Origin: a virus
Taxonomy: Duplodnaviria > Heunggongvirae > Uroviricota > Caudoviricetes
IMG/VR virus record: IMGVR_UViG_3300033067_001661
Location: 32,001 to 96,000 of that record
Direction: 5' to 3' (one strand)
Length of the DNA stretch: 64,000 nucleotides
The translations under genes were made by a program, and so were the position numbers. Shown here piece by piece: positions 10,024 to 52,783 of the stretch. The notes under the pieces were generated by a model. The model was not told where the DNA came from and did not search any database. It was given only the letters and a program-made list of their open reading frames with translations. The stretch's first letter is position 1, and each line of letters begins with the position of its first letter.

Positions 10024-10581
10024 ATGGGTAAACTTAACGAAGCAATATGTTATCTCAGCGGCCCTATTGACAAGGCCAAAGACCTTGGAAGAGGTTGGCG
10101 CAAAGAATTCATTGCCAAGACAAGCAACTTGGGAATGCAGATTATTGACCCCTGTAATAAGCCTGCTTCTTTTGTTCATGAAGTCAAAGGCGACGTTCGA
10201 ACCGTCACCAAGATGAGAGAAGAGAAGCAATGGGTTGAGTTACAGAAGTTTGTCAAGAAGTTCCGCAGAGAAGACTTGAGATTCACTGACGTTTCAGACT
10301 TCTTGGTTGTTTATATAGATCCTGACGTTCCTTCCTACGGAACGCTTGACGAGTTGTTTACAGCCGAAGACCAGAAAAAGCCTTGCTTCTGTATTTGCAA
10401 GGGAGGTATCGAGTGCCTTCCAACTTGGCTATTCGGAGTTTTTAGGCTTGAAGAAGTCTTCGGTTCGATTGACGAATGCGTTGCTCACCTTATGAAGATT
10501 GACAATGGCGAGATAAACATAGAAGAGGACCGAAGATGGGTATTGTTCAGAAAAGAACTGAGAAATCAATGTCTTTCCTAA
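10024..10581 (+). CDS. Nucleoside 2-deoxyribosyltransferase-like protein
   Basis: YLSGPID...WR, IIDP, DL...SD..VVY, SYGTLDEL, KP. Start moved to the ATG at 10024 with RBS TAAGGA. Confidence 0.75.
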   Translation: MGKLNEAICYLSGPIDKAKDLGRGWRKEFIAKTSNLGMQIIDPCNKPASFVHEVKGDVRTVTKMREEKQWVELQKFVKKFRREDLRFTDVSDFLVVYIDPDVPSYGTLDELFTAEDQKKPCFCICKGGIECLPTWLFGVFRLEEVFGSIDECVAHLMKIDNGEINIEEDRRWVLFRKELRNQCLS

Positions 10582-11468
10582 ATGGTTATCTCCGATGGAT
10601 TGGAGGTAAGTCTAGTATCGCAGAACAAATTCTGCCGAACTTCCCAAACGATATTGATATCTATGTAGAACCTTTTGTTGGTTCTGGTGCTATGTTTTTC
10701 GCCTGGTACAAGAGTCTTGAATATAAGTCTTGCAATATCTTCCATGACAATATAAAGTTTCCAAGCAAAATCGTTCTCTGCGATATAAACAGCCATCTTA
10801 TAAACTGTCACAGAATGGTTAGAGACAACTGCGAAGAAGTCTTGGCAAGGGTTTTGCAACTTCAAGAAAAACATAACGCCCTTGGCGAACACTTCGAATC
10901 AATGTACAAAGATATTAGAAAGACAGTAACAGACGATATAACAAGCTCAAATCAAATCGAACTTGCTGCGCAGTTTATGTATGTCAACAAGACTTGCTTT
11001 AATGGAATTTGGAGAGTAAATAGGGCTGGAAAGAACAACGTTCCTTCTAATAAGAAAACGCATATTAGCTTTAACGAAGAAGCGATTAGAGACGCCTCTA
11101 GAATGCTTAAGAAAGCAGAGATTAGAGAAGTCAACTTCACGAATCTAAACTTTGCTCCATGTAAGGATGTCTTTGTTTACTTAGACCCTCCATATTACCC
11201 AATCTCAAAAACTTCAAGCTTCGCTTCATATAACAAAGAAAGAGAAAATGATGACAAGCTGCTTGAAAAACTAAAGAGATATTGTCAAGAGCTTGACGGT
11301 TGCGGAATAAAATGGGCAATGTCTAATAGCAATGCAAAAGAAGTTCTCGACTCCTTTTCAAACAATCGCATTATCCCCATAAGCGCTCACAGATTCGTTC
11401 GAGCAATTAAGAAAAACAACGAAAGGCGAGAGAAGATAACAGAAACTCTCATACTAGGCAAACAATGA
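10569..11468 (+). CDS. dam: Dam-family (D12 class) N6-adenine DNA methyltransferase
   Basis: RWIGGK, EPFVGSGA, DIN, NKTCFNGIWRVN, YLDPPY; start moved to 10569. Confidence 0.9.
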   Translation: MSFLNGYLRWIGGKSSIAEQILPNFPNDIDIYVEPFVGSGAMFFAWYKSLEYKSCNIFHDNIKFPSKIVLCDINSHLINCHRMVRDNCEEVLARVLQLQEKHNALGEHFESMYKDIRKTVTDDITSSNQIELAAQFMYVNKTCFNGIWRVNRAGKNNVPSNKKTHISFNEEAIRDASRMLKKAEIREVNFTNLNFAPCKDVFVYLDPPYYPISKTSSFASYNKERENDDKLLEKLKRYCQELDGCGIKWAMSNSNAKEVLDSFSNNRIIPISAHRFVRAIKKNNERREKITETLILGKQ

Positions 11469-12205
11469 TATTCAAATACTCAGGAAATAAATGGAAGGTC
11501 TTACAGAAGCTCGGTCTTCAATTACCTTCTCATAAAAGACTAGCTGAACTTTACTTGGGTTCTGGCGCTTTCATACTTAGTAATAAAGGTCCAGCTTTAG
11601 GCATGGACACAAATCCAGATATTGTTGACCTTTGGAAATGGCTTAAAACAGTCAAACCAGAAGAGCTTAGAGAACTTGAGAGGGTTAGACAAGTTCATGT
11701 TGCTGCTGCTAGCAACAACAAGCCTGACGTTAGAAAGATGGGTCTCGATAGAGGCGCTGAACTCTATATGCGAGTCAACGTTACGGGAGTGTATGTAGGT
11801 CAACTAAGTTCTTGGAAAGTTTATCCCAAATGGAAGCTTCCCGTTGAGCAAACGATCTCTCGTCTAGAAAGAGTGAAAGAGATAGACATTAGACTTGGCA
11901 AAGCTCATATAGATTACACGCAAGAAGACGGCGATCTTGTTTTCTTAGATCCGCCGTATGTTGGAACGAAAGGTAACTATAAACAAGGCGCAAAGAAAGG
12001 TATTGAAGAGTCATACAATCCTCAAGACACGATAGACCTTATCTCTAGGCTTTCGTGTCCAATCATTTTGACTTATGGAACAGACGCAAAGACGGCTTTC
12101 CCTCAATATGAATGGCAAGAAGTCCTAAGAAAGAAAGTTCCCCTTATTAGAAAAGGCGGAACCGTTGAACGAATAGAGCATGTTACTTTAATAAACTGGA
12201 AATAA
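11465..12205 (+). CDS. Second D12-class N6-adenine DNA methyltransferase
   Basis: FKYSGNK, ELYLGSGA, FLDPPY; ATGA overlap with the upstream dam gene. Confidence 0.8.
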   Translation: MIFKYSGNKWKVLQKLGLQLPSHKRLAELYLGSGAFILSNKGPALGMDTNPDIVDLWKWLKTVKPEELRELERVRQVHVAAASNNKPDVRKMGLDRGAELYMRVNVTGVYVGQLSSWKVYPKWKLPVEQTISRLERVKEIDIRLGKAHIDYTQEDGDLVFLDPPYVGTKGNYKQGAKKGIEESYNPQDTIDLISRLSCPIILTYGTDAKTAFPQYEWQEVLRKKVPLIRKGGTVERIEHVTLINWK

Positions 12206-42997: not shown

Positions 42998-43633
42998 TCA
43001 ATGAACTCTTGTTATCGCATGAGGAGTACTTTCGACCCAACCATGATGCGATATTTCTATAAACACAGCTTTTTCTTGCAAATCGTAAATAGAACCTACT
43101 CCAGAATAGGTCAAGCCTGAGCGAACTCCGCCAGTAAGTTCATTTAGAATCGAAGAAACCGGACCTTTCGCTCTCACCTCTATGGATTCGCCTTCAGCAG
43201 CAACTCCGATCTTGCCTATATCCTTCAAGAAATGTTTAGAAGATTGTCCTCTATACAATTTGAAAGATCCGTCTTTTGTTGTAAAGATTTCCCCAGGAGC
43301 TTCATCGCAACCAGCAAGAATACTACCAAGCATAACCGCATCCGCTCCGGCAGCAAGAGCTTTTACAATATCACCGCTATTCGTAATTCCGCCATCAGCA
43401 ATAATGCCAACTTCAGGAAAGCCTTCAATCTCAAGAGCTTGTCGAGCATTAATTATTGCAGAAAGTTGAGGCACTCCATGACCAGTAACTATTCTTGTAG
43501 TACAAACAGAATTATGAACAGCAATTCCTTCAATATTATAGGAATGATCGTCTTCTACCTCGATATCAAAGACTTCTCCGCTATATTCTAGAACCTTGAT
43601 TTCGGAAATTTCAATTAGTGTAAACTTTTTCAA
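42998..43633 (-). CDS. Split-intein C-fragment (41 aa) fused to the C-terminal half of IMPDH/GMP reductase
   Basis: VFDIEVEDDHSYNIEGIAVHN|SVCTTR, then IIADGGI, GDIVKALAAGADAVMLGS, EAPGE, YRGQSS, GVRSGLTYSG; TTG start overlaps the MTase stop (TTGA). Confidence 0.93.
   Translation of the reverse strand: MKKFTLIEISEIKVLEYSGEVFDIEVEDDHSYNIEGIAVHNSVCTTRIVTGHGVPQLSAIINARQALEIEGFPEVGIIADGGITNSGDIVKALAAGADAVMLGSILAGCDEAPGEIFTTKDGSFKLYRGQSSKHFLKDIGKIGVAAEGESIEVRAKGPVSSILNELTGGVRSGLTYSGVGSIYDLQEKAVFIEISHHGWVESTPHAITRVH
43511..43633 (-). mobile_element. Split intein, IntC
   Basis: Blocks F/G (VFDIEV..HSY...VHN) followed by Ser+1. Confidence 0.92.
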
Positions 43634-44652
43634 TTTTCAGTTCCTGCAAAAATATTAGATTCTTCAGTTTTAGAAGAATCATTTTTTTCAGCATATTGTT
43701 CCAAGTGCTTATCTAAGATATTTTTGATAGCAAAACGACCACGACCATACTTGTCTTGCAATATTTTTGCTATATCTTTTTTCTTGGCCTTAGTTGAACT
43801 CATTTGAATGTAATCAAGACATATAGATTTTGCGTCTGCATCAGTTATTTTTTTACCTTGATTAACGGGAAGAATATTTTCTACCTTTTTCATCATCTTA
43901 AGGTCTGAACCAAGTTTAATTTCCTTAAGTTTATCTATATGATAATCATATGATTTTTTATTCATTTCATAACCACAAACACTTCTTCCAAGCCTTGTTG
44001 CGATATATGCAGTTGTAAAATTACCCATAAAGAAATCACACACCATGTCTCCTTCATTAGAAGAATACATGATTATCTTGCGGATTAATTCTTCCGGAAG
44101 TTTATTTTGATTTTTCTTTTGATTTGGAGCATAATCTCTATTGATTGCGAAAACATCTTCAAGATCTTGATACAAAAGAGATCCGCCTTTAGAATCTTTT
44201 TCCTGAGAACCAAAACGACAATTAAGATTAAAGGTAGGAGTTGATTTACTAGACTTGCTGTAATACAAAACATGATAATGTGAAGTTACAAATTTCTTCT
44301 TTGTATTAACTCCAAAATTATATTTCCAAATAATATGATTTATTTCATGAAGGCCTAAATTATGAGCAGCGTTTAAGACGTGCCTCAATTTACTATGCCC
44401 CATAATAACATACATGGAACCGTTTTCTTTTAATACTCTTTTTGCCTCGGCTAACCACAAATGAGTCCATTGTTCATAATCATCAGGAGCCTCTTTATAT
44501 CCTTGAATAACGTTGCTTGAGTCTCTTTTGTAATGCTTGTTAAAACCAGTTTCTCCTATACCGAATGGTGGATCAAAAATACCAAGATCAACTGAACCAT
44601 CCTTAATTTTTTTTTCCTTGTCTATGCAATCTTCTGAATAAATTCTAATCAC
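43630..44652 (-). CDS. Beta-class N4-C/N6-A DNA methyltransferase
   Basis: FDPPF near the N-terminus, IIWKY, P..LIRKII.YSSNEGDMVCDFFMG (motif I) near the C-terminus. Confidence 0.9.
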   Translation of the reverse strand: MIRIYSEDCIDKEKKIKDGSVDLGIFDPPFGIGETGFNKHYKRDSSNVIQGYKEAPDDYEQWTHLWLAEAKRVLKENGSMYVIMGHSKLRHVLNAAHNLGLHEINHIIWKYNFGVNTKKKFVTSHYHVLYYSKSSKSTPTFNLNCRFGSQEKDSKGGSLLYQDLEDVFAINRDYAPNQKKNQNKLPEELIRKIIMYSSNEGDMVCDFFMGNFTTAYIATRLGRSVCGYEMNKKSYDYHIDKLKEIKLGSDLKMMKKVENILPVNQGKKITDADAKSICLDYIQMSSTKAKKKDIAKILQDKYGRGRFAIKNILDKHLEQYAEKNDSSKTEESNIFAGTEN

Positions 44653-45344
44653 AATTCTTCTCCCATCAACATTCTATATTGCTGTTCTATACAACCCTCT
44701 TGACATTCAATGAATCTAGCGTTTTGTTCTTCAGCAGATACAGCATGATACTGAGGCTTCATCTTTTGGAGGTCTTGTTCACTTATTTCCAAATAAGCCA
44801 AACAATCTTCTTTATTAGGCATTTGTATCTGTATTTGTCCAATACCGTCATGCAATGGTATAAGATTTTGTACTTGTTTCATAGACAACAAATATATACC
44901 CGAACCAACAATGCTCTTCTCATTAATGCAAATGACCCATAAATAATCAAACGCATTATTGTTGAAATTTTTACTATTTTTGGTATTTACCAGTTGAATC
45001 TTCGTGGCCTTTGTTCTACCTTCGCCTCGCTTGCGTTTTCTGGAGAAGATTTCTGATTTTGTCGATTTTATACTAACTCTTTTGCCGTAAATTTCTGCGT
45101 CATGCGAAAGACCTTCATGTTCTGTTATCTTAAGCGTTTCTGGACTAAACTTCTTTCTAAGAGCAAAATTAAAATAATCAGGAGCATGCATTCTGTACTT
45201 CAAAGATGAACTTACTACAGAAGGCGTCATTTTCATTGACAGATAAAGAGCTTCTTTTATCTTGGATGCATTCCTGTTCATAAATTTAGCTATTTCATCC
45301 ATGTTTTTACCTTCAATTTCAGGCTGTATAACTAACTGATCCAT
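44649..45344 (-). CDS. Putative type II restriction endonuclease
   Basis: SHDAEIYGKRVSIKS (PD-(D/E)xK variant D...SxK), FDYLWVI; GTGA-coupled to the MTase. Confidence 0.45.
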   Translation of the reverse strand: MDQLVIQPEIEGKNMDEIAKFMNRNASKIKEALYLSMKMTPSVVSSSLKYRMHAPDYFNFALRKKFSPETLKITEHEGLSHDAEIYGKRVSIKSTKSEIFSRKRKRGEGRTKATKIQLVNTKNSKNFNNNAFDYLWVICINEKSIVGSGIYLLSMKQVQNLIPLHDGIGQIQIQMPNKEDCLAYLEISEQDLQKMKPQYHAVSAEEQNARFIECQEGCIEQQYRMLMGEEL

Positions 45345-45347
45345 ACT

Positions 45348-46280
45348 CTATTTATCCTTTGATAATTCAACAACTATTTTATCTAAAATCACAAAATTGC
45401 TGTTCTTTATTTCACTTTCCCAAATATACCACATTTTGTACCCGTACTTCTCAGCGAATGCTTTCTTTTCTTCGTCTCGTTGTACCTTAAACTTTTGTCT
45501 TTCACTGAGTTTTCGCTTACCACTTTCATTACCATAAATAAGTGGGTTTCCATGCCAATAATCACCCATCACTTCCAGTAAAATATCGTCGCCAATGATA
45601 AAATCATACTGATACTTTCTATGTAGAATTTTACTGTATTTATACTTTATGTTTCTTCTGATCAATTCTTCTTCAACAATCTTTTCTATTGAAGTTTTTA
45701 GACCTTTAGACTGCTTCTCAATAGATTTTATTCCCTGCTGCTTAAGCCTTTCTAAGGCCTCAGGATGGTCCTGAAGATATTGCTTATTTTTGCGACTAAT
45801 AGTTTTTCTTGCTTCATCAGTATGGGTTTTGTTGTAAAAAGGGTTCTTAAATCCGGTAACAGAATCCGATATCTTTTGTTTGATTTCTTTGGACTCTTGC
45901 TCTGTATATGTTTCCCACATATTCTTTTGGAAGAAGTAATTCTTTTCGCCCGTATTCATTCCTGTTTTAGAGTCACGAATCTTGTCAATAGATTCTTCTG
46001 AATGCTTCTTCCCGTAAAATGGGTTTCTTTTGCCCAAAGATCTACAATAAAAGCATTCATATTTCTTATTTAAGGGAGAAGATTTTCCGCTATAAAGTGA
46101 TATTTGATTGTAATTCGTGCAGCCTATATTTGAACAGTAAACGTTACATCTTTGTCCGTATATTTTAGAACCATCTACTCTATCTCCATTTGATAACAGA
46201 TAAATACATCTACGACCGTTGAGTTTTTTCTTTTCAATAATCTGAGCATCGTTTTGACAAAGTACAATCTTGTTTATCAT
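45348..46280 (-). CDS. Free-standing homing endonuclease: NUMOD3 repeats plus Vsr/DUF559-like nuclease
   Basis: GKRNPFYGKKHSEE and NPFYNKTHTDE repeats; TSIE, YDF, LEVMGDYWHG, RD..K, IWESE; start moved to the ATG at 46280 (GGAGAG RBS). Confidence 0.85.
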   Translation of the reverse strand: MINKIVLCQNDAQIIEKKKLNGRRCIYLLSNGDRVDGSKIYGQRCNVYCSNIGCTNYNQISLYSGKSSPLNKKYECFYCRSLGKRNPFYGKKHSEESIDKIRDSKTGMNTGEKNYFFQKNMWETYTEQESKEIKQKISDSVTGFKNPFYNKTHTDEARKTISRKNKQYLQDHPEALERLKQQGIKSIEKQSKGLKTSIEKIVEEELIRRNIKYKYSKILHRKYQYDFIIGDDILLEVMGDYWHGNPLIYGNESGKRKLSERQKFKVQRDEEKKAFAEKYGYKMWYIWESEIKNSNFVILDKIVVELSKDK

Positions 46281-46341
46281 AACCACTCTCCAAACTAGCA
46301 CTTCCAACGCCTAGTTTTACTGAGATGGCTGATAAGCTCCT

Positions 46342-47226
46342 TCATTCTTTATTTATTTTTAGCAGGAAATATTCAGGAGACAAGTCTTTGGCTCTGATCC
46401 ACTCCGCATACTCATTTATGTTTTCATCATTTATAATGTCCTTATATTTCTTATGCAAAACATAATATTCATGATTATCAGTTGACTTTATACCGTTGAT
46501 GGAGATTAGTTTCTTGTTTTCCTGTCTTACCATTTTACCAACAACTTTTTTATATCTATTGCGATGAGTAAGAACTTCTTCTCCAACCTGTATTTGGTCT
46601 ATGTTTTTAGAACCATTTTTAGTTATTACTTTATTATCGCTGGTAAAACATCCAGAACCAATACCAACTTTTACACAATCAGCGCCAGCAGCAGCAAGAT
46701 CAACAGCACCTTCCGGTGTTGCAATATTTCCTGCTATAATTGTAGTATTAGGTATTTTTGACAAAGCCTGAACAGTTTCGATAGACTGTTCCATATGACC
46801 ATGAGCTACATCTAAACAAATTATTGCTTTTGTTGGGAACTTGGGACTAAATCCATTACAAATATTCTCCGCAAATTTTATCCACTTATCTCCGCAACCA
46901 ACACTAAATGCAGTATGCTTGCATGATTCATGTACTTTTTCTATCTCTTTTTTATAATCATCGATGGAGGAATAAAAACGATGCAAAATACCAAGACCCC
47001 CATGATCGCACATTGCTTTTGCCATCTTGGAGCCAGTTACAGTATCCATATTGGCGCTGATAAACGGGATATCTAAAGATACTCCTTCAGCAAGATGAGA
47101 GACAAGACTAATACGACTGTCCATTCTTGACTTGAATGGAGACCTTTGCGGCTTTAGAAGAACGTCATTGAACGTCAACCACGACGAAGGCCAATATTGC
47201 TCACCAGCAGCATTCTCAAACTTCAT
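46342..47226 (-). CDS. N-terminal half of IMPDH/GMP reductase fused to the split-intein N-fragment (102 aa)
   Basis: LTFNDVLLKP, SANMDTVT, GGLGILHR, LDVAHGH, AGNIAT, VKVGIGSG|CFTSD...STDNHEYY...WIRAKDL then stop; no CBS subdomain. Confidence 0.93.
   Translation of the reverse strand: MKFENAAGEQYWPSSWLTFNDVLLKPQRSPFKSRMDSRISLVSHLAEGVSLDIPFISANMDTVTGSKMAKAMCDHGGLGILHRFYSSIDDYKKEIEKVHESCKHTAFSVGCGDKWIKFAENICNGFSPKFPTKAIICLDVAHGHMEQSIETVQALSKIPNTTIIAGNIATPEGAVDLAAAGADCVKVGIGSGCFTSDNKVITKNGSKNIDQIQVGEEVLTHRNRYKKVVGKMVRQENKKLISINGIKSTDNHEYYVLHKKYKDIINDENINEYAEWIRAKDLSPEYFLLKINKE
46345..46650 (-). mobile_element. Split intein, IntN
   Basis: Cys1 TGT at 46648-46650, block A CFTSDNKVIT, block B TDNH, ends at a stop codon with no C-terminal HN. 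Confidence 0.92.
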
Positions 47227-47670: not shown

Positions 47671-48642
47671 TTATGCAACATCAATCGTCTTTCCAAGCTG
47701 GCGAATATCGGAATCCACCATAATATGACAAAGCTCTTTCATGGATGTTTTCGGAACCCATCCAAGCTTTTCACGAGCCTTTGAAGGATCGCCAAGCAAA
47801 AAGTTCACTTCTGAGGGTCTAAAATACTTCGGGTCAATGACAACGCAATCTTCCCAATCAAGATTAACTCTCCAAAATGCTTCTTGCAAAAACTCTCTCA
47901 CGCTATAACTCTGACCTGTTGCAACAACAAAATCTTCAGGTTTATCTTGTTGAAGCATGAGCCACATTGCTTCAACATACTCTTTTGCATAACCCCAATC
48001 TCTCTTAGCGTCAAGATTACCAAGACGAAGCTCTTTCTGTAAGCCAGCCTTGATTCTCGCAACTGCCCTTGTTATCTTTCTTGTAACAAACGTTTCTCCT
48101 CGTCTAGGGCTTTCATGATTGAAAAGAATACCACTGCATGCATACATGCCATACGATTCTCTATAGTTTCTTGTCAAATAATGAGCGCAAACTTTTCCGC
48201 ATGCATAAGGACTTTGCGGCAGGAAAGTCGTTAGTTCATTTTGAGGAGGTAATGCTGCGCCAAACATTTCACTAGACGAAGCATTGTATATCTTAGAATT
48301 AAGGCCCAAAGACCTTACGGATTCAAGTATATTTAGCGTACCAAGAGCGGTTGAAGATACAGTATAATGAGGTATTTCAAAGCTAACCTTAACATGAGAC
48401 ATAGCCGCAAGATGATATATTTCGTCTGGTCGAGTTTCGTTGATAACTCCAGATATACTTGTTTGATCAAGCAAATCCGCATGATGCAAATGCAACTTAT
48501 CAAATATGTGGTCTATTCTCTCAGTATTGAATGAACTAGACCTTCTCAAAGTCCCATGAACCTCATATCCTTTAGAAAGCAAAAGCTCTGCAAGATAAGA
48601 GCCATCTTGTCCTGAAACGCCAGTTATTAATGCCTTTTTCAT
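47671..48642 (-). CDS. gmd: GDP-mannose 4,6-dehydratase
   Basis: [63 protein letters not shown]. Confidence 0.96.
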
Positions 48643-49556
48643 ACTCTCTCTTTCTCTGAAGTTTGCTGAAGATACCAGTCGTATGTCTTCTTAAGCCCTT
48701 CGTCTAAATCAGTAAATGGCTCAAGAGCAAAAGCGCTAGATATCTTTGAAATATCTACGTCTTTTCTATGAACGCCGTCAAGTTTTCCATTATAATAAAT
48801 ACTGCCCCAATAGTTCGTAACTTTCGCAACTGATTGAGCAATCTCTGCTATTGAGTAGTTTCTTGGATTTGCAAAGTTAAACTCGCCACTAATATCAGAA
48901 TTAAGAATACGGAAAAGCATCCTAGCAAGATCGTCAACATATGTTAGTTGTCGCAAAGACAAACCTGTTCCATAAAGCTCAACAGTATCTTTACCCTCTT
49001 TTACAGCATTATGGAACTTAAGCATTAGCGCCGGAATAACATGACTTTTTTGCAAGTCAAACGTGTCATGAGGACCATAAAGATTGCTAGGATAAACAGT
49101 TGTCCAGTTCAAACCATATTGCTGCTTGGCTGTCTCTATCTGTACCTGCATCATTCTTTTGGCAAAAGCATAACCATAGTTCGTTTTTTCTGGATAGCCT
49201 TTATGAAGAACCTCTTCCTTAATCGGATAAGACTCAACGATTGCCGGATACACGCAAGTGCTTGAAAGAGCAATGACCTTCGGAACTCGCAATTCCACAC
49301 AAGCATTGATAACATTTGTATTAATTCTAAGATTCTGAACAAAGTAATCATATAGAAAATCAGAGTTATCCTTGATACCTCCAACTTTTGCGGCAAGATG
49401 GATTACAGCGTCAGGTTTATGAGAGAAAAACAAACCACTAACCCCTTTTGGGTCTCTCAAATCGCAATCCATAGAGCTTAGATAGGTTGCATTAGGAAAA
49501 ATTCTTTGCAGGGCTTTTCCAACCATACCCGTTCCACCAGTAACTAGAACCTTCAT
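48639..49556 (-). CDS. fcl: GDP-L-fucose synthase
   Basis: [43 protein letters not shown]; coupled to gmd. Confidence 0.92.
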
Positions 49557-49566
49557 TATTCACCTT

Positions 49567-49950
49567 TCAAAAACACTGTTCATCGTCTTTAAGTTCATTT
49601 TCTAGTTCTTCGTCAAAGATAAAAGCCTCGTCCAGGACTTCAACTTCTGGAGGGGGCTGTATAAGATAATGAATACCGTCATTTTGAGAAGATTTGGTAA
49701 AAGCCATTTCTCCGTCTCGGAGAATATTCTCTATTACAGGAAAGTCTACCGGATCTATGACCAACTCCTGTTCGACCCTATTTATTTGGCAAAAGCTAAT
49801 TATGGCATAGATCTTATCCATCTCCATGCCAATTTCTTTTAGCTTGATTACCTTTGGTTTGCGCTTGCCCCTCTTGATTGGTTTAGCATCTTTTGTCTTT
49901 TTGATAACCTTGCTTGGCTTGGATTCTTTCTTCTCTATCTTTCTCCTCAT
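49567..49950 (-). CDS. Hypothetical protein (basic N-terminus, acidic C-terminus)
   Basis: 127-aa ORF, GGAGAG RBS. Confidence 0.6.
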   Translation of the reverse strand: MRRKIEKKESKPSKVIKKTKDAKPIKRGKRKPKVIKLKEIGMEMDKIYAIISFCQINRVEQELVIDPVDFPVIENILRDGEMAFTKSSQNDGIHYLIQPPPEVEVLDEAFIFDEELENELKDDEQCF

Positions 49951-50026
49951 ATACTCTCTCCATAATATGACTGAACATATACTTTTCGGAGTTAGTACAG
50001 GGAGCGCTTGCGCATTTCACCAAATA

Positions 50027-50710
50027 TCAAGGTAATCTGGGATTGAAATTAGATCTTTTTCTGCGCTCGTATGTTCTTCCGTCTTGCCGGTAAAACGATT
50101 CGTTTCGCATATGAAGCTGATCTTTGCCTGTATAGTCAACCCAGTCATGCCTGATTATGACCTTATCGAGGTAGACAGCCTTATTCATGGCATAAACAGA
50201 ATCATGAAACTCATTATCGCAATACAGACTAACGTAACTTGGATGATAGATATACCCAAAATGGTCGTATAACGGCTTCCCCATAATAGAAAGAGTAATC
50301 AATCTTTGCCCAACCCTACCGTCACTGTAATGTAAAGCTCCATCAAAACTAGGAAAATGCTTTGTCATATCATCAAAGATAATCTTATCATAACCCTTTT
50401 CTATAGGAGTCATATCATCACTTGCCAACAAAAGAATCTTCCAATCATTATGATGATGCATGTCTGCATTTATTGCTTGAACTTTACTTTTTGAGTTACC
50501 ATAATAATAGAAAATATGCTGTCTTCCACCATTTGCAGGGCTTAGCCACCATTTCATATCATCATTGTTCATCCAATGGTCGTCAATGTCCATAGAGACA
50601 ACAAACTTAACCTTTAGCTCACCAGACAGCATGCTATAATACTTATCAAATTGATTACGAAACTTATCCGGTCGCCCTCTTGTTGGAAACTTAATTAGTA
50701 GATCAAACAT
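50027..50710 (-). CDS. GT2-like glycosyltransferase
   Basis: IKFPTRGRP, SKVQAIN, LASDDM, YCDNE. Confidence 0.75.
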   Translation of the reverse strand: MFDLLIKFPTRGRPDKFRNQFDKYYSMLSGELKVKFVVSMDIDDHWMNNDDMKWWLSPANGGRQHIFYYYGNSKSKVQAINADMHHHNDWKILLLASDDMTPIEKGYDKIIFDDMTKHFPSFDGALHYSDGRVGQRLITLSIMGKPLYDHFGYIYHPSYVSLYCDNEFHDSVYAMNKAVYLDKVIIRHDWVDYTGKDQLHMRNESFYRQDGRTYERRKRSNFNPRLP

Positions 50711-50719
50711 AATAACTCC

Positions 50720-51283
50720 TTAAACTTCAACTAACCAGCATTGACCATTGGTTGAATAATTGCCTTGACCAAAAACTTCATTAATAGCTCTAGTTACGCC
50801 TTCCCAGCCATAATCATGACCAGCAATAATTCCGCCTTTACGAACCTTAGGCAGCCAATGCTTGATATCTTGTATAACAAACTCATACTTATGTTCCGCA
50901 TCTATAAAGACAAAATCTATAGAAGAATCAGAATAACGAGCAGAAGCAAGAACGGAGTCCATTTCCACAGGCCTCATAATATGAAGAACAGGAGCCATGT
51001 TATTCAGAAATTCTGGAAAAATAGTACCGTTACGAACAAGTGTTTCATCATAAGCGCCATTAGAAGGATCATACATTTGCTCAGACCCTTTCCATGTATC
51101 AACGACATCGAGCTTTATACGCTTACCTGAGTTTATTATTTCAACAGCAAGATAAGAGGTACTCTGACCGTACCAAGCTCCTATTTCAACGAAAAAATAG
51201 TCGTCTTTTGCCCAAGAAACAATCTTGGAATAAACATCCTCATAATCAAAATATCCAGGAATCGTCTTATAGAAATGATTCAT
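50720..51283 (-). CDS. Class I SAM methyltransferase (Methyltransf_24-like)
   Basis: VEIGAWYGQS, VDTW, FVFIDAEH, GGIIAGHDY. Confidence 0.88.
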   Translation of the reverse strand: MNHFYKTIPGYFDYEDVYSKIVSWAKDDYFFVEIGAWYGQSTSYLAVEIINSGKRIKLDVVDTWKGSEQMYDPSNGAYDETLVRNGTIFPEFLNNMAPVLHIMRPVEMDSVLASARYSDSSIDFVFIDAEHKYEFVIQDIKHWLPKVRKGGIIAGHDYGWEGVTRAINEVFGQGNYSTNGQCWLVEV

Positions 51284-51951
51284 ACTTTACTCAACAATCC
51301 AATATAGAGACCATGCCACCACCATTCTTTTATCGGTTCTTCTCTTTCCAACTCAAGAGAATATTGAATCTTGATTTTTGAAGATAAAGATTCCAAAGAA
51401 TACTTGGTTGCTGATTTAACAACAGGAAATGAATAATCATCAACTATAAACAAAAATGTATCCGAAAGATTGTCTAATGCATATTCTAATGCTCTACTTT
51501 GAGGCTCAAAATCATGACAGCCATCATAGAAGAAAACATCAAACTTACCATGCTCAGAAAGATCTGTTTTGAAAAAGTCAGCATCAATAAAACGATGCTT
51601 ACCATCCGTAAAAATCATAAGGTTATTATCAAGATCATTTCTTATCGAAACACCATTATCCCATTCCCTATCTGTTTCTAGAAAGTCTTTACCAAACTCC
51701 GAGAAGTTATCGATCAACAAACTCTTAGAAATATTGTTCTTATACAAAGCAGCACAAGCTGTACTGCCTCGCCAACATCCAACCTCTAAATAAGAAAGAC
51801 CTTCAATAGACATTAGGTTATTCAAAAAATGCCTATTTCGCTCGCTAGACATTCCCATAATTGAAAGAACAAAAGAATCAAGTTTTGACTCTTTATTATT
51901 CGCTTTATGAAAACTTGTAAGTATATGTTCAGGTGTTAGCTTTGATGACAT
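51280..51951 (-). CDS. Class I SAM methyltransferase
   Basis: YLEVGCWRGST, IDNFS, FFYDGCH, IVDD. Confidence 0.82.
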   Translation of the reverse strand: MSSKLTPEHILTSFHKANNKESKLDSFVLSIMGMSSERNRHFLNNLMSIEGLSYLEVGCWRGSTACAALYKNNISKSLLIDNFSEFGKDFLETDREWDNGVSIRNDLDNNLMIFTDGKHRFIDADFFKTDLSEHGKFDVFFYDGCHDFEPQSRALEYALDNLSDTFLFIVDDYSFPVVKSATKYSLESLSSKIKIQYSLELEREEPIKEWWWHGLYIGLLSKV

Positions 51952-52783
51952 TTTGAATCCTCTTCATGTAATTATCCATATGAATCTCTCCAACATTGAA
52001 ATTATTCCAAATCTTGTCATAAAGCTCTTTACTAAAGTTGATTTTCTTAAAATCAGACCAATCATCAAGAATGATTATTGGAAAATCCTTATGAGCTTCA
52101 GCAACAGGACTTCTTGTTACAATAGGTATTGATTTGACATACAAAGCTTCCCACGTTCTATGGCAGTCAATACCGTTGCCTTTTGGGGAAATACAGAAAT
52201 AAGACTTGCTAATATCTCTAAGATAGCCTTCAAAAGTATTTGGAAGCTTATACCCTCCAGCGAAACCGTTCCAACCACCATTAGTTTCAGAAGCTAATGG
52301 CACGCCGGTCTGTTGTAAACAATATTCTCTTTCTGCTCTATTGTTTTGAATGCTATAGTTAGCATAAAACATAACTTCTTTTATATTCTCTTCACTTCTT
52401 ACTCTATTGATGGCAGAGATATCCCCATGCGAATATCCTGCATCCGCAATGCCTATTGGAATAGGTTTAAGTTTTGGATGATTTATAGCAACATTTTGTG
52501 CAAACCAAACTAATACCCTAGGATCTTCCAAGTATCTAAGATGGGATTCATTGATAGGATAATCACTGTTATGAGTAAAAAGAACAAATGGATTAGGCAA
52601 TCTAATCGTTGAGAAAAAGTTTGCTAAGTAATCTGTTTTAACAAAGACCCAGTTTTCAGGTTTCGAATATGGATTTATCTTATATCCATCATAGTTCCAT
52701 ATGTGTTTACATTGTACAGCGAAACTATTCCCCGTTAAATAGGGAAAGCTATGATCCTCAAATGTCTTCCATTGCCAAAACAT
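51929..52783 (-). CDS. Exostosin-like (GT47-related) glycosyltransferase
   Basis: THNSD, WFAQN, PIPIG, FCISPKGNGIDCHRTWEALY..SIPIV. Confidence 0.7.
   Translation of the reverse strand: MFWQWKTFEDHSFPYLTGNSFAVQCKHIWNYDGYKINPYSKPENWVFVKTDYLANFFSTIRLPNPFVLFTHNSDYPINESHLRYLEDPRVLVWFAQNVAINHPKLKPIPIGIADAGYSHGDISAINRVRSEENIKEVMFYANYSIQNNRAEREYCLQQTGVPLASETNGGWNGFAGGYKLPNTFEGYLRDISKSYFCISPKGNGIDCHRTWEALYVKSIPIVTRSPVAEAHKDFPIIILDDWSDFKKINFSKELYDKIWNNFNVGEIHMDNYMKRIQNVIKANT

Follow-up and report, generated by a model that had tools for sequence, protein, structure and literature searches.

A split-intein insert carrying a homing endonuclease and a candidate restriction-modification pair has moved between giant phages

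We analyzed a 64,000-nt window of a tailed virus (Caudoviricetes; IMG/VR record IMGVR_UViG_3300033067_001661), which corresponds to C1:32001-96000 of a 333.6-kb virus record with 42 tRNA genes. Positions are those of the window unless a handle precedes them: G000 is the window's own genome record, and L-numbers are comparison loci or contigs. In this window a jumbo-phage gene of the GMP reductase/IMPDH family is split at its catalytic loop by a mobile insert of 3,140 bp (43511..46650, minus strand). The insert contains an N-terminal intein half (IntN), an EDxHD homing endonuclease, a ThaI-fold nuclease that we read as a restriction endonuclease (REase), a beta-class methyltransferase (MTase) and a C-terminal intein half (IntC); the gap between the gene halves is 2.7 kb. 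The insert is missing from an intact allele of a sister phage and has crossed between phages as a whole. We consider it likely that homing initiated by the endonuclease carries this cassette, around which the host protein is spliced, and that its restriction-modification (R-M) pair is active and excludes unmethylated competitor or host DNA.

Architecture of the split gene and its insert

The preliminary description of the locus had proposed an IMPDH/GMPR gene broken by a split intein with three genes in between, and all five open reading frames (ORFs) were found on the minus strand as described. The N-half (46342-47226) consists of a 192-aa extein and the 102-aa IntN, the C-half (42998-43633) of the 41-aa IntC and a 170-aa extein. 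The N-extein (46651..47226, minus strand; PF00478, E 6e-39) is of the CBS-less GMPR/IMPDH type, ends in the GxGxG of the catalytic loop and is 80% identical to the intact L012 allele. The C-extein (42998..43510, minus strand; PF00478, 2e-49) holds the catalytic Cys and Thr and the glutamate of the EG motif. Positions 2-181 of the Pfam IMPDH model match the N-half and positions 178-345 the C-half; therefore the halves abut. The ORFs, the junction residues and the abutting Pfam positions agree with the earlier proposal of a rebuilt 362-aa enzyme, for which a mass of 38.4 kDa is predicted. The catalytic Cys, Thr and Glu are conserved, a CBS domain is absent, and the flap, judged from the alignment of the intact allele and the window sequence, is short and lacks the Arg-Tyr dyad in both. 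This dyad in the mobile flap serves hydrolysis in IMPDH (GuaB) and is a mark of that enzyme (PMC2525682). In the curated equivalog models each half scored below every cut-off, with the IMPDH models slightly ahead, and the best PDB matches were IMPDHs. We kept the family assignment and narrowed it: lacking both the Arg-Tyr flap and the CBS domain, the enzyme is probably a GuaC-like GMP reductase rather than an IMPDH.

IntN (46342..46650, minus strand; 102 aa plus stop, net charge +4) starts with Cys1 and has the block-B TxxH (T57 and H60). Hint and Hint_2 matches on the N-half, which begin at residue 193, are weak and below cut-off; C1, T57 and H60 are invariant in four alleles. IntC (43511..43633, minus strand; 41 aa, net charge -7) ends in His-Asn before Ser+1 (Ser-Val-Cys), lies above the TIGR01443 cut-off (24 bits vs 15.6) and is 54% identical to the IntC of an endonuclease-only locus (L033). 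The two fragments hold the residue set of a class 1 split intein (Cys1, TxxH, terminal His-Asn and Ser+1) and carry opposite charges, and with the TIGR01443 match these residues confirm the parts of the split intein described earlier. Judged by its residues and by analogy to IMPDH-1, which has a similar layout and splices fast (PMC11766414), the two halves would be joined by trans-splicing. The MTase stop codon overlaps the TTG start of IntC. Scans of viral contigs gave no further relatives of IntN or IntC, and pattern scans of GTDB genomes, which have low sensitivity, gave no relative of IntN or the MTase. Sixteen further split IMPDH/GMPR N-halves (P0147-P0162) were recorded, with IntN 48-89% and exteins 31-57% identical. 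A second intein of the genome, contiguous and above the PF14890 cut-off, lies in a 1,007-aa ORF (G000:C1:263716-264765).

The homing endonuclease (45348..46280, minus strand; 310 aa) is Vsr-like and has two NUMOD3 domains (NUMOD3 1e-17; TIGR00632 vsr 0.003), in agreement with the first description of the gene. The EDxHD residues are intact (E199, D226, E236, H243 and D269), and the sole significant PDB match of the nuclease profile is I-Bth0305I (3r3p, E 8e-4). The ratio of nonsynonymous to synonymous substitutions (dN/dS) of 0.09-0.14 indicates purifying selection. An RNA hairpin (46274..46335, minus strand; -18.9 kcal/mol, z -2.2, 4/200 shuffles) covers the Shine-Dalgarno sequence and ATG of the gene and is predicted to act as a translational brake. 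The start codon had been placed at TTG 46307, which we withdrew; ATG 46280 is more likely, given the gene calls in other assemblies and a Shine-Dalgarno sequence within the hairpin. Among 44 other EDxHD loci none had such an R-M pair nearby, so the association of endonuclease and R-M pair is not general.

The insert is AT-rich (GC content 0.30-0.35 vs 0.40-0.42 in the exteins), and promoter and terminator counts were at chance level. A chimeric assembly, a concern raised at the outset, was dismissed because 10 other contigs from JGI and Logan assemblies hold the cassette, one of which (L002) is 100% identical over 11,048 nt.

Allelic series and movement of the insert

The empty allele is found in L012, a sister phage with flanks 91-98% identical, and its cluster includes four more intact proteins. 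The L012 alignment reaches 46651 and picks up again at 43510, so that the insert is exactly 3,140 bp, without target duplication. The full insert is present in the window, L001, L008 and L145. L011 has lost the endonuclease, leaving a remnant of its last codons, and kept the R-M genes. L148-150 have lost the endonuclease and the R-M genes and retain the endonuclease tail together with a 36-aa ORF that fuses the REase start to the MTase end; this ORF still overlaps the IntC start, which suggests that the coupling of MTase and IntC is needed. L146 and L147 carry the endonuclease only, in resident-type exteins, and their IntC has its own ATG. Among distant loci of the type described by Dassa et al. 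(2009), L033 and L034 have the endonuclease only and L035 no cargo. The survey of homologous loci proposed in the preliminary description thus gave empty, full, endonuclease-only, R-M-only and empty-gap alleles; the endonuclease reported for the gap is present in the window and is not a permanent fixture, since L011 and L148 lost it. In a tree of the short IntN the R-M-remnant allele L148 branches first (support 89/82), and the R-M cargo is therefore probably ancestral in the clade. A 52-aa ORF in the R-M-less gap of L146 (L146:7921-8079) matched nothing in the genome or at the other loci; in one short segment it loosely resembles the host catalytic loop, possibly as a decayed target copy or by chance. 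Additional HNH and GIY-YIG endonuclease genes are found near the locus in relatives (L146:12161-13042 and L149:752-1450) and not in the window.

The window, L001 and L008 share an identical insert and have three different C-extein haplotypes. The window C-extein differs from those of L001 and L008 at ~120 of 513 nt; the differences set in 23 and 11 nt past IntC. The L001 and L008 C-exteins are resident-type, with 50 and 30 differences to L012 and 58 between themselves. Probable donor-derived (co-converted) tracts lie on both sides of the insert in the window. The N-extein tract (46651..47034, minus strand) has 8-22 differences per 48 nt to L012, vs 2-5 upstream of 47034. The C-extein tract (43028..43510, minus strand) has 119-122 differences to L001, L008 and L012, and in L001 and L008 it is replaced by resident-type sequence. 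The genome's only AGTACT (~36 expected) is at the edge of the C-extein tract (43025-43030), and one of six genomic ATCGAT sites is in or at the edge of the donor-derived tracts; this placement is a modest point, made post hoc. A 70-nt patch of the N-extein (window 47026-47094; L003-L005 and L009) has 20 substitutions from a source allele other than L012. Contigs L008, L010 and L007, which come from different samples and assemblers, start or stop only a few bases from an insert junction or from the first position at which the haplotypes differ (window 46655 and 43488); this suggests mixed flanks within samples.

The comparison of the window with L145 gave protein identities of 98% for IntN, 88% for the endonuclease, 93% for the REase, 96% for the MTase and 95% for IntC, vs 61 and 66% for the two exteins and 53-60% for the neighbouring genes. 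The synonymous-codon difference was 0.57 in the exteins, 0.28 in the intein halves and 0.10 in the R-M pair (Fisher p ~1e-7 for each step). In the older allele L011 it is uniform at 0.42-0.50, so the low value of the R-M pair is not due to a slow intrinsic rate. Movement of the cassette as one unit, as first proposed, is evident from the intact L012, the identical insert on different extein haplotypes and the 88-98% identity of the L145 cassette. Two events would follow from these differences: the whole insert crossed between phages, and the R-M pair was later exchanged between alleles that were already split. The earlier suggestion that homing spreads the R-M genes is sound as far as the whole-insert transfer goes; that the pair also moved apart from the intein halves is not explained by the endonuclease alone. 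Since the endonuclease should not cut split alleles, this second exchange would require breaks made by the REase, or selection.

EDxHD enzymes cut uninterrupted alleles only, beside the insertion site (PMC3239194), and the exchange points close to the junctions are consistent with cleavage of an intact target allele here. In a mixed infection the endonuclease would cleave an uninterrupted guaC/guaB allele at or next to the codons of the catalytic loop, and repair of the break would copy the full 3.1-kb insert plus flanking tracts of variable length. Trans-splicing into the 362-aa enzyme would make the insertion nearly cost-free, with IntC translation presumably coupled to the MTase stop. The R-M pair, apparently an old cargo under purifying selection, would most likely methylate the DNA of the carrier phage and cut unmethylated DNA of a competitor (or the host). 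Restriction could further push the R-M pair into split alleles that lack it and keep it in place after loss of the endonuclease.

The candidate R-M pair and competing explanations

The gene at 44649..45344 (minus strand) encodes a 231-aa putative Type II REase with a PD-(D/E)xK fold and ThaI-type active-site residues (D82...S91-x-K93). HMM (hidden Markov model) libraries and a PDB sequence search gave no match, and fold and feature searches alone found matches. Alignment-based scans of loci for this gene gave nothing, as it offers too few conserved blocks. The AlphaFold2 (AF2) model (predicted local distance difference test, pLDDT, 90) matched ThaI (VIA; 3ndh, Z 9.9, 176 aligned residues, root-mean-square deviation 4.0) and NaeI (Z 9.1), and the top rows of the fold and feature search were nearly all restriction enzymes; I-Ssp6803I, a homing PD-(D/E)xK enzyme, also matched (Z 6.4). 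The protein heads a family of 22 representatives, with K93 invariant throughout and D82 and S91 conserved to 90% or more, and its dN/dS is 0.10-0.21. The original candidate label is backed by the ThaI/NaeI-like fold of the model and by the conserved MTase partner.

The MTase gene (43630..44652, minus strand; 340 aa) has motif IV (DPPF) at residue 27 and motif I at 207. This motif order agrees with the PF01555 (2e-36) and PADLOC MTase_II PDLC03296 (6e-82) matches and with the earlier assignment to the beta-class amino-MTases. The dN/dS is 0.09-0.11. No close named relative was found in phages, plasmids or the PDB, where CcrM was the best match (5e-20). The REase and MTase families are neighbours in 21 of the 32 loci fetched; either gene may come first, and most of these pairs do not lie within inteins (the loci were not de-duplicated, and one was chosen via its REase gene), and about one-third of the MTase-family loci have no REase match. 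In many loci the pair is free-standing, and resolvase or IS605 genes lie close to some of these copies. The two genes have diverged together and were deleted together. Taken together, the fold, the active-site residues, the family adjacency and the dN/dS of 0.09-0.21 make a Type II R-M pair, with predicted activity, the best reading of these two genes. Two more tandem pairs of genes with amino-MTase motifs are present in the genome (window 10536-12205 and G000:C1:117959-119568).

The same three genes, in the same order, were found in a split dnaE gene. L116 (one contig, one sample) has dnaE-N with a 124-aa IntN, an EDxHD-like gene, a REase homologue, an MTase 74% identical to that of the window, and a 44-aa IntC with dnaE-C. 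L156 holds a contiguous intein at the same dnaE site, 61 and 52% identical to the L116 halves, which confirms them. The MTases of the two cassettes fall in one weak group of 10 rows (84) and are not sisters. We put forward tentatively, at somewhat below an even chance, that giant phages harbor recurring two-tier selfish elements: a split intein would provide a cost-free bay in an essential gene, the homing endonuclease a first drive, and competitors would be killed or converted by an active Type II R-M pair, a second drive that is independent of the site and moves between bays, with the same module in at least two unrelated host genes (guaC/guaB and dnaE). In L156:1-7700 the intein is a mini-intein, and two MTase-like genes and others lie between the PHP half and the C-half of dnaE. 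The dnaE gene of the window's own genome (L153; G000:C1:110576-115309, beyond the window) is split without an intein and has a 170-aa PD-(D/E)xK-like ORF and a Dam-like MTase in the gap. Directly upstream of the dnaE C-half there is a 244-aa frame in L154 and again a nuclease-like and a Dam-like gene in L155.

Several points weigh against the reading of a homing cassette with an active R-M pair. The REase has no conserved equivalent of the helix glutamate of ThaI (Glu54), a residue that PvuII does not need for activity. The structural Z of the REase reaches no more than about 10, and the protein belongs to no HMM family. The junction-proximal crossovers could also reflect the catalytic loop as the most conserved stretch. 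The dnaE cassette is a single contig, and its REase (30%) and homing endonuclease (25%) are distant. Site avoidance in the genome names no recognition site for the R-M pair, as too many sites are depleted. Genome-wide, GACGTC, GGCGCC, CTGCAG, CCATGG, GAGCTC, CTCGAG, GGTACC and CAGCTG are absent, as are GAC-N3-, N4-, N5- and N6-GTC (~40 expected each), and CGCG is at 0.22 of expected; such extreme avoidance implies a host rich in R-M systems.

The R-M pair itself might be the main driver, if restriction of unmethylated co-infecting genomes (or selection) spread the insert by ordinary break repair, with the endonuclease as a dispensable passenger and the intein gap as a safe harbour. L011 fits such a course, with the R-M pair in place and the endonuclease gone, as do the later exchange of the pair relative to the intein halves and its free-standing copies, some beside resolvase or IS605 genes; L148, however, lost the R-M pair as well. 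The element also spreads without the pair, because the endonuclease-only insert of L146/L147 sits in resident-type exteins. In addition, the endonuclease is under purifying selection, and the boundaries are at the intein junctions, as a site-directed cut would give. We regard an R-M-led spread as unlikely.

Less probable still, with perhaps a slim chance, is that the MTase is an orphan that protects against a host restriction enzyme and that the 231-aa protein is a second homing-type, a repair or an inactive nuclease. The two best structural matches of that protein are Type IIP REases, and its active-site conservation argues for a restriction nuclease, whereas the I-Ssp6803I match and the unconserved helix glutamate would suit another role. 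As for the MTase, many restriction-like sites are strongly avoided in the genome, which also encodes several further amino-MTases, and a REase match is missing in about a third of the MTase-family loci; the adjacency in 21 of 32 loci, in either order, and the joint divergence and deletion of both genes speak for a pair. Neutral accumulation, in which mobile R-M pairs enter the gap and degenerate there as in any intergenic spacer and the mosaic is generic phage recombination, is very improbable: the intein-free split dnaE of the genome has a comparable nuclease-like gene and Dam-like MTase, cargo varies among relatives and several alleles lost it, but a heterologous block of 3.1 kb passed between genes whose synonymous sites are saturated, its edges are at the intein junctions, at least two resident haplotypes have the identical insert, and dN/dS is at or below 0.21 in all parts.

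Upstream of the locus (window 47671-52783) are genes for a GDP-mannose dehydratase, an epimerase/GDP-fucose synthase, a glycosyltransferase-like protein and a methyltransferase, the first two of which are missing from L146. One of the 42 tRNA genes has a CTA anticodon (G000:C1:12932-13011; called Pyl by ARAGORN, possibly an amber suppressor).

Relation to known systems

Fractured phage genes with split inteins and a free-standing endonuclease, including an IMPDH site, were published by Dassa et al. (2009; PMC2677866), as the preliminary description had stated in general terms. The window shares with IMPDH-1, -2 and -3 of that work the enzyme family, a split intein with Cys1 and Ser+1 of similar size, a free-standing Vsr-like endonuclease with NUMOD3, a 5' hairpin and overlapping gene ends, and likewise a conserved enzyme broken into two ORFs with the halves in order in one locus. 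In the published fractured gene the last gap gene overlaps the IntC start; here this gene is the MTase and not the endonuclease. The fragments here are positive (IntN) and negative (IntC) in net charge, whereas the reverse local polarity, measured differently, was given for IMPDH-1. At most one endonuclease occupies the gap of the published loci, and the paper does not contain the word methyl. At the present locus an R-M pair travels with the intein, and the comparison of alleles reveals an empty one, a deletion series and horizontal transfer.

The endonuclease resembles I-Bth0305I and other EDxHD enzymes (PMC3239194) in its profile match to 3r3p, its intact catalytic D and H positions and its multidomain build; unlike I-Bth0305I, it is encoded by a free-standing gene between the halves of a split intein and not within a group I intron, and its target is predicted. 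The islands of homing endonuclease genes (HEGs) in ICP1-like phages (Barth et al., 2023; PMC10055350) are similar in that endonucleases mobilise cargo at high nucleotide identity between distant phages and that HEG content is unstable. Those islands lack discrete boundaries and have essential genes flanked by at least two HEGs, whereas here a single HEG travels with accessory R-M cargo inside an essential-type gene and the boundaries are fixed by the split intein. The candidate R-M pair is closest to the ThaI-type Type IIP systems (PMC3025569) in fold, in the SxK active site (D82/S91/K93) and in the paired amino-MTase; it differs from ThaI in its 14% identity, the lack of a conserved Glu54 equivalent, the DPPF motif and its location on a phage. 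The fractured layout, the IMPDH site and the EDxHD family are thus already published, as is HEG-driven cargo in another geometry. The cassette adds an uncharacterised REase family and new split inteins, and in the literature searched, of which coverage was incomplete, no publication described a split intein with R-M genes as cargo.

Natural alleles show that a fractured gene can serve as a carrier: several genes passed together between phages with only 61-66% identity in the host gene, and the enzyme was apparently kept intact by protein splicing. These alleles provide a near-complete allelic series for the life-cycle model of Dassa et al. within one phage clade, and with an empty target at hand in L012 homing in fractured genes becomes directly testable. 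The finding points to R-M systems as phage-versus-phage weapons that may be spread by gene drive.

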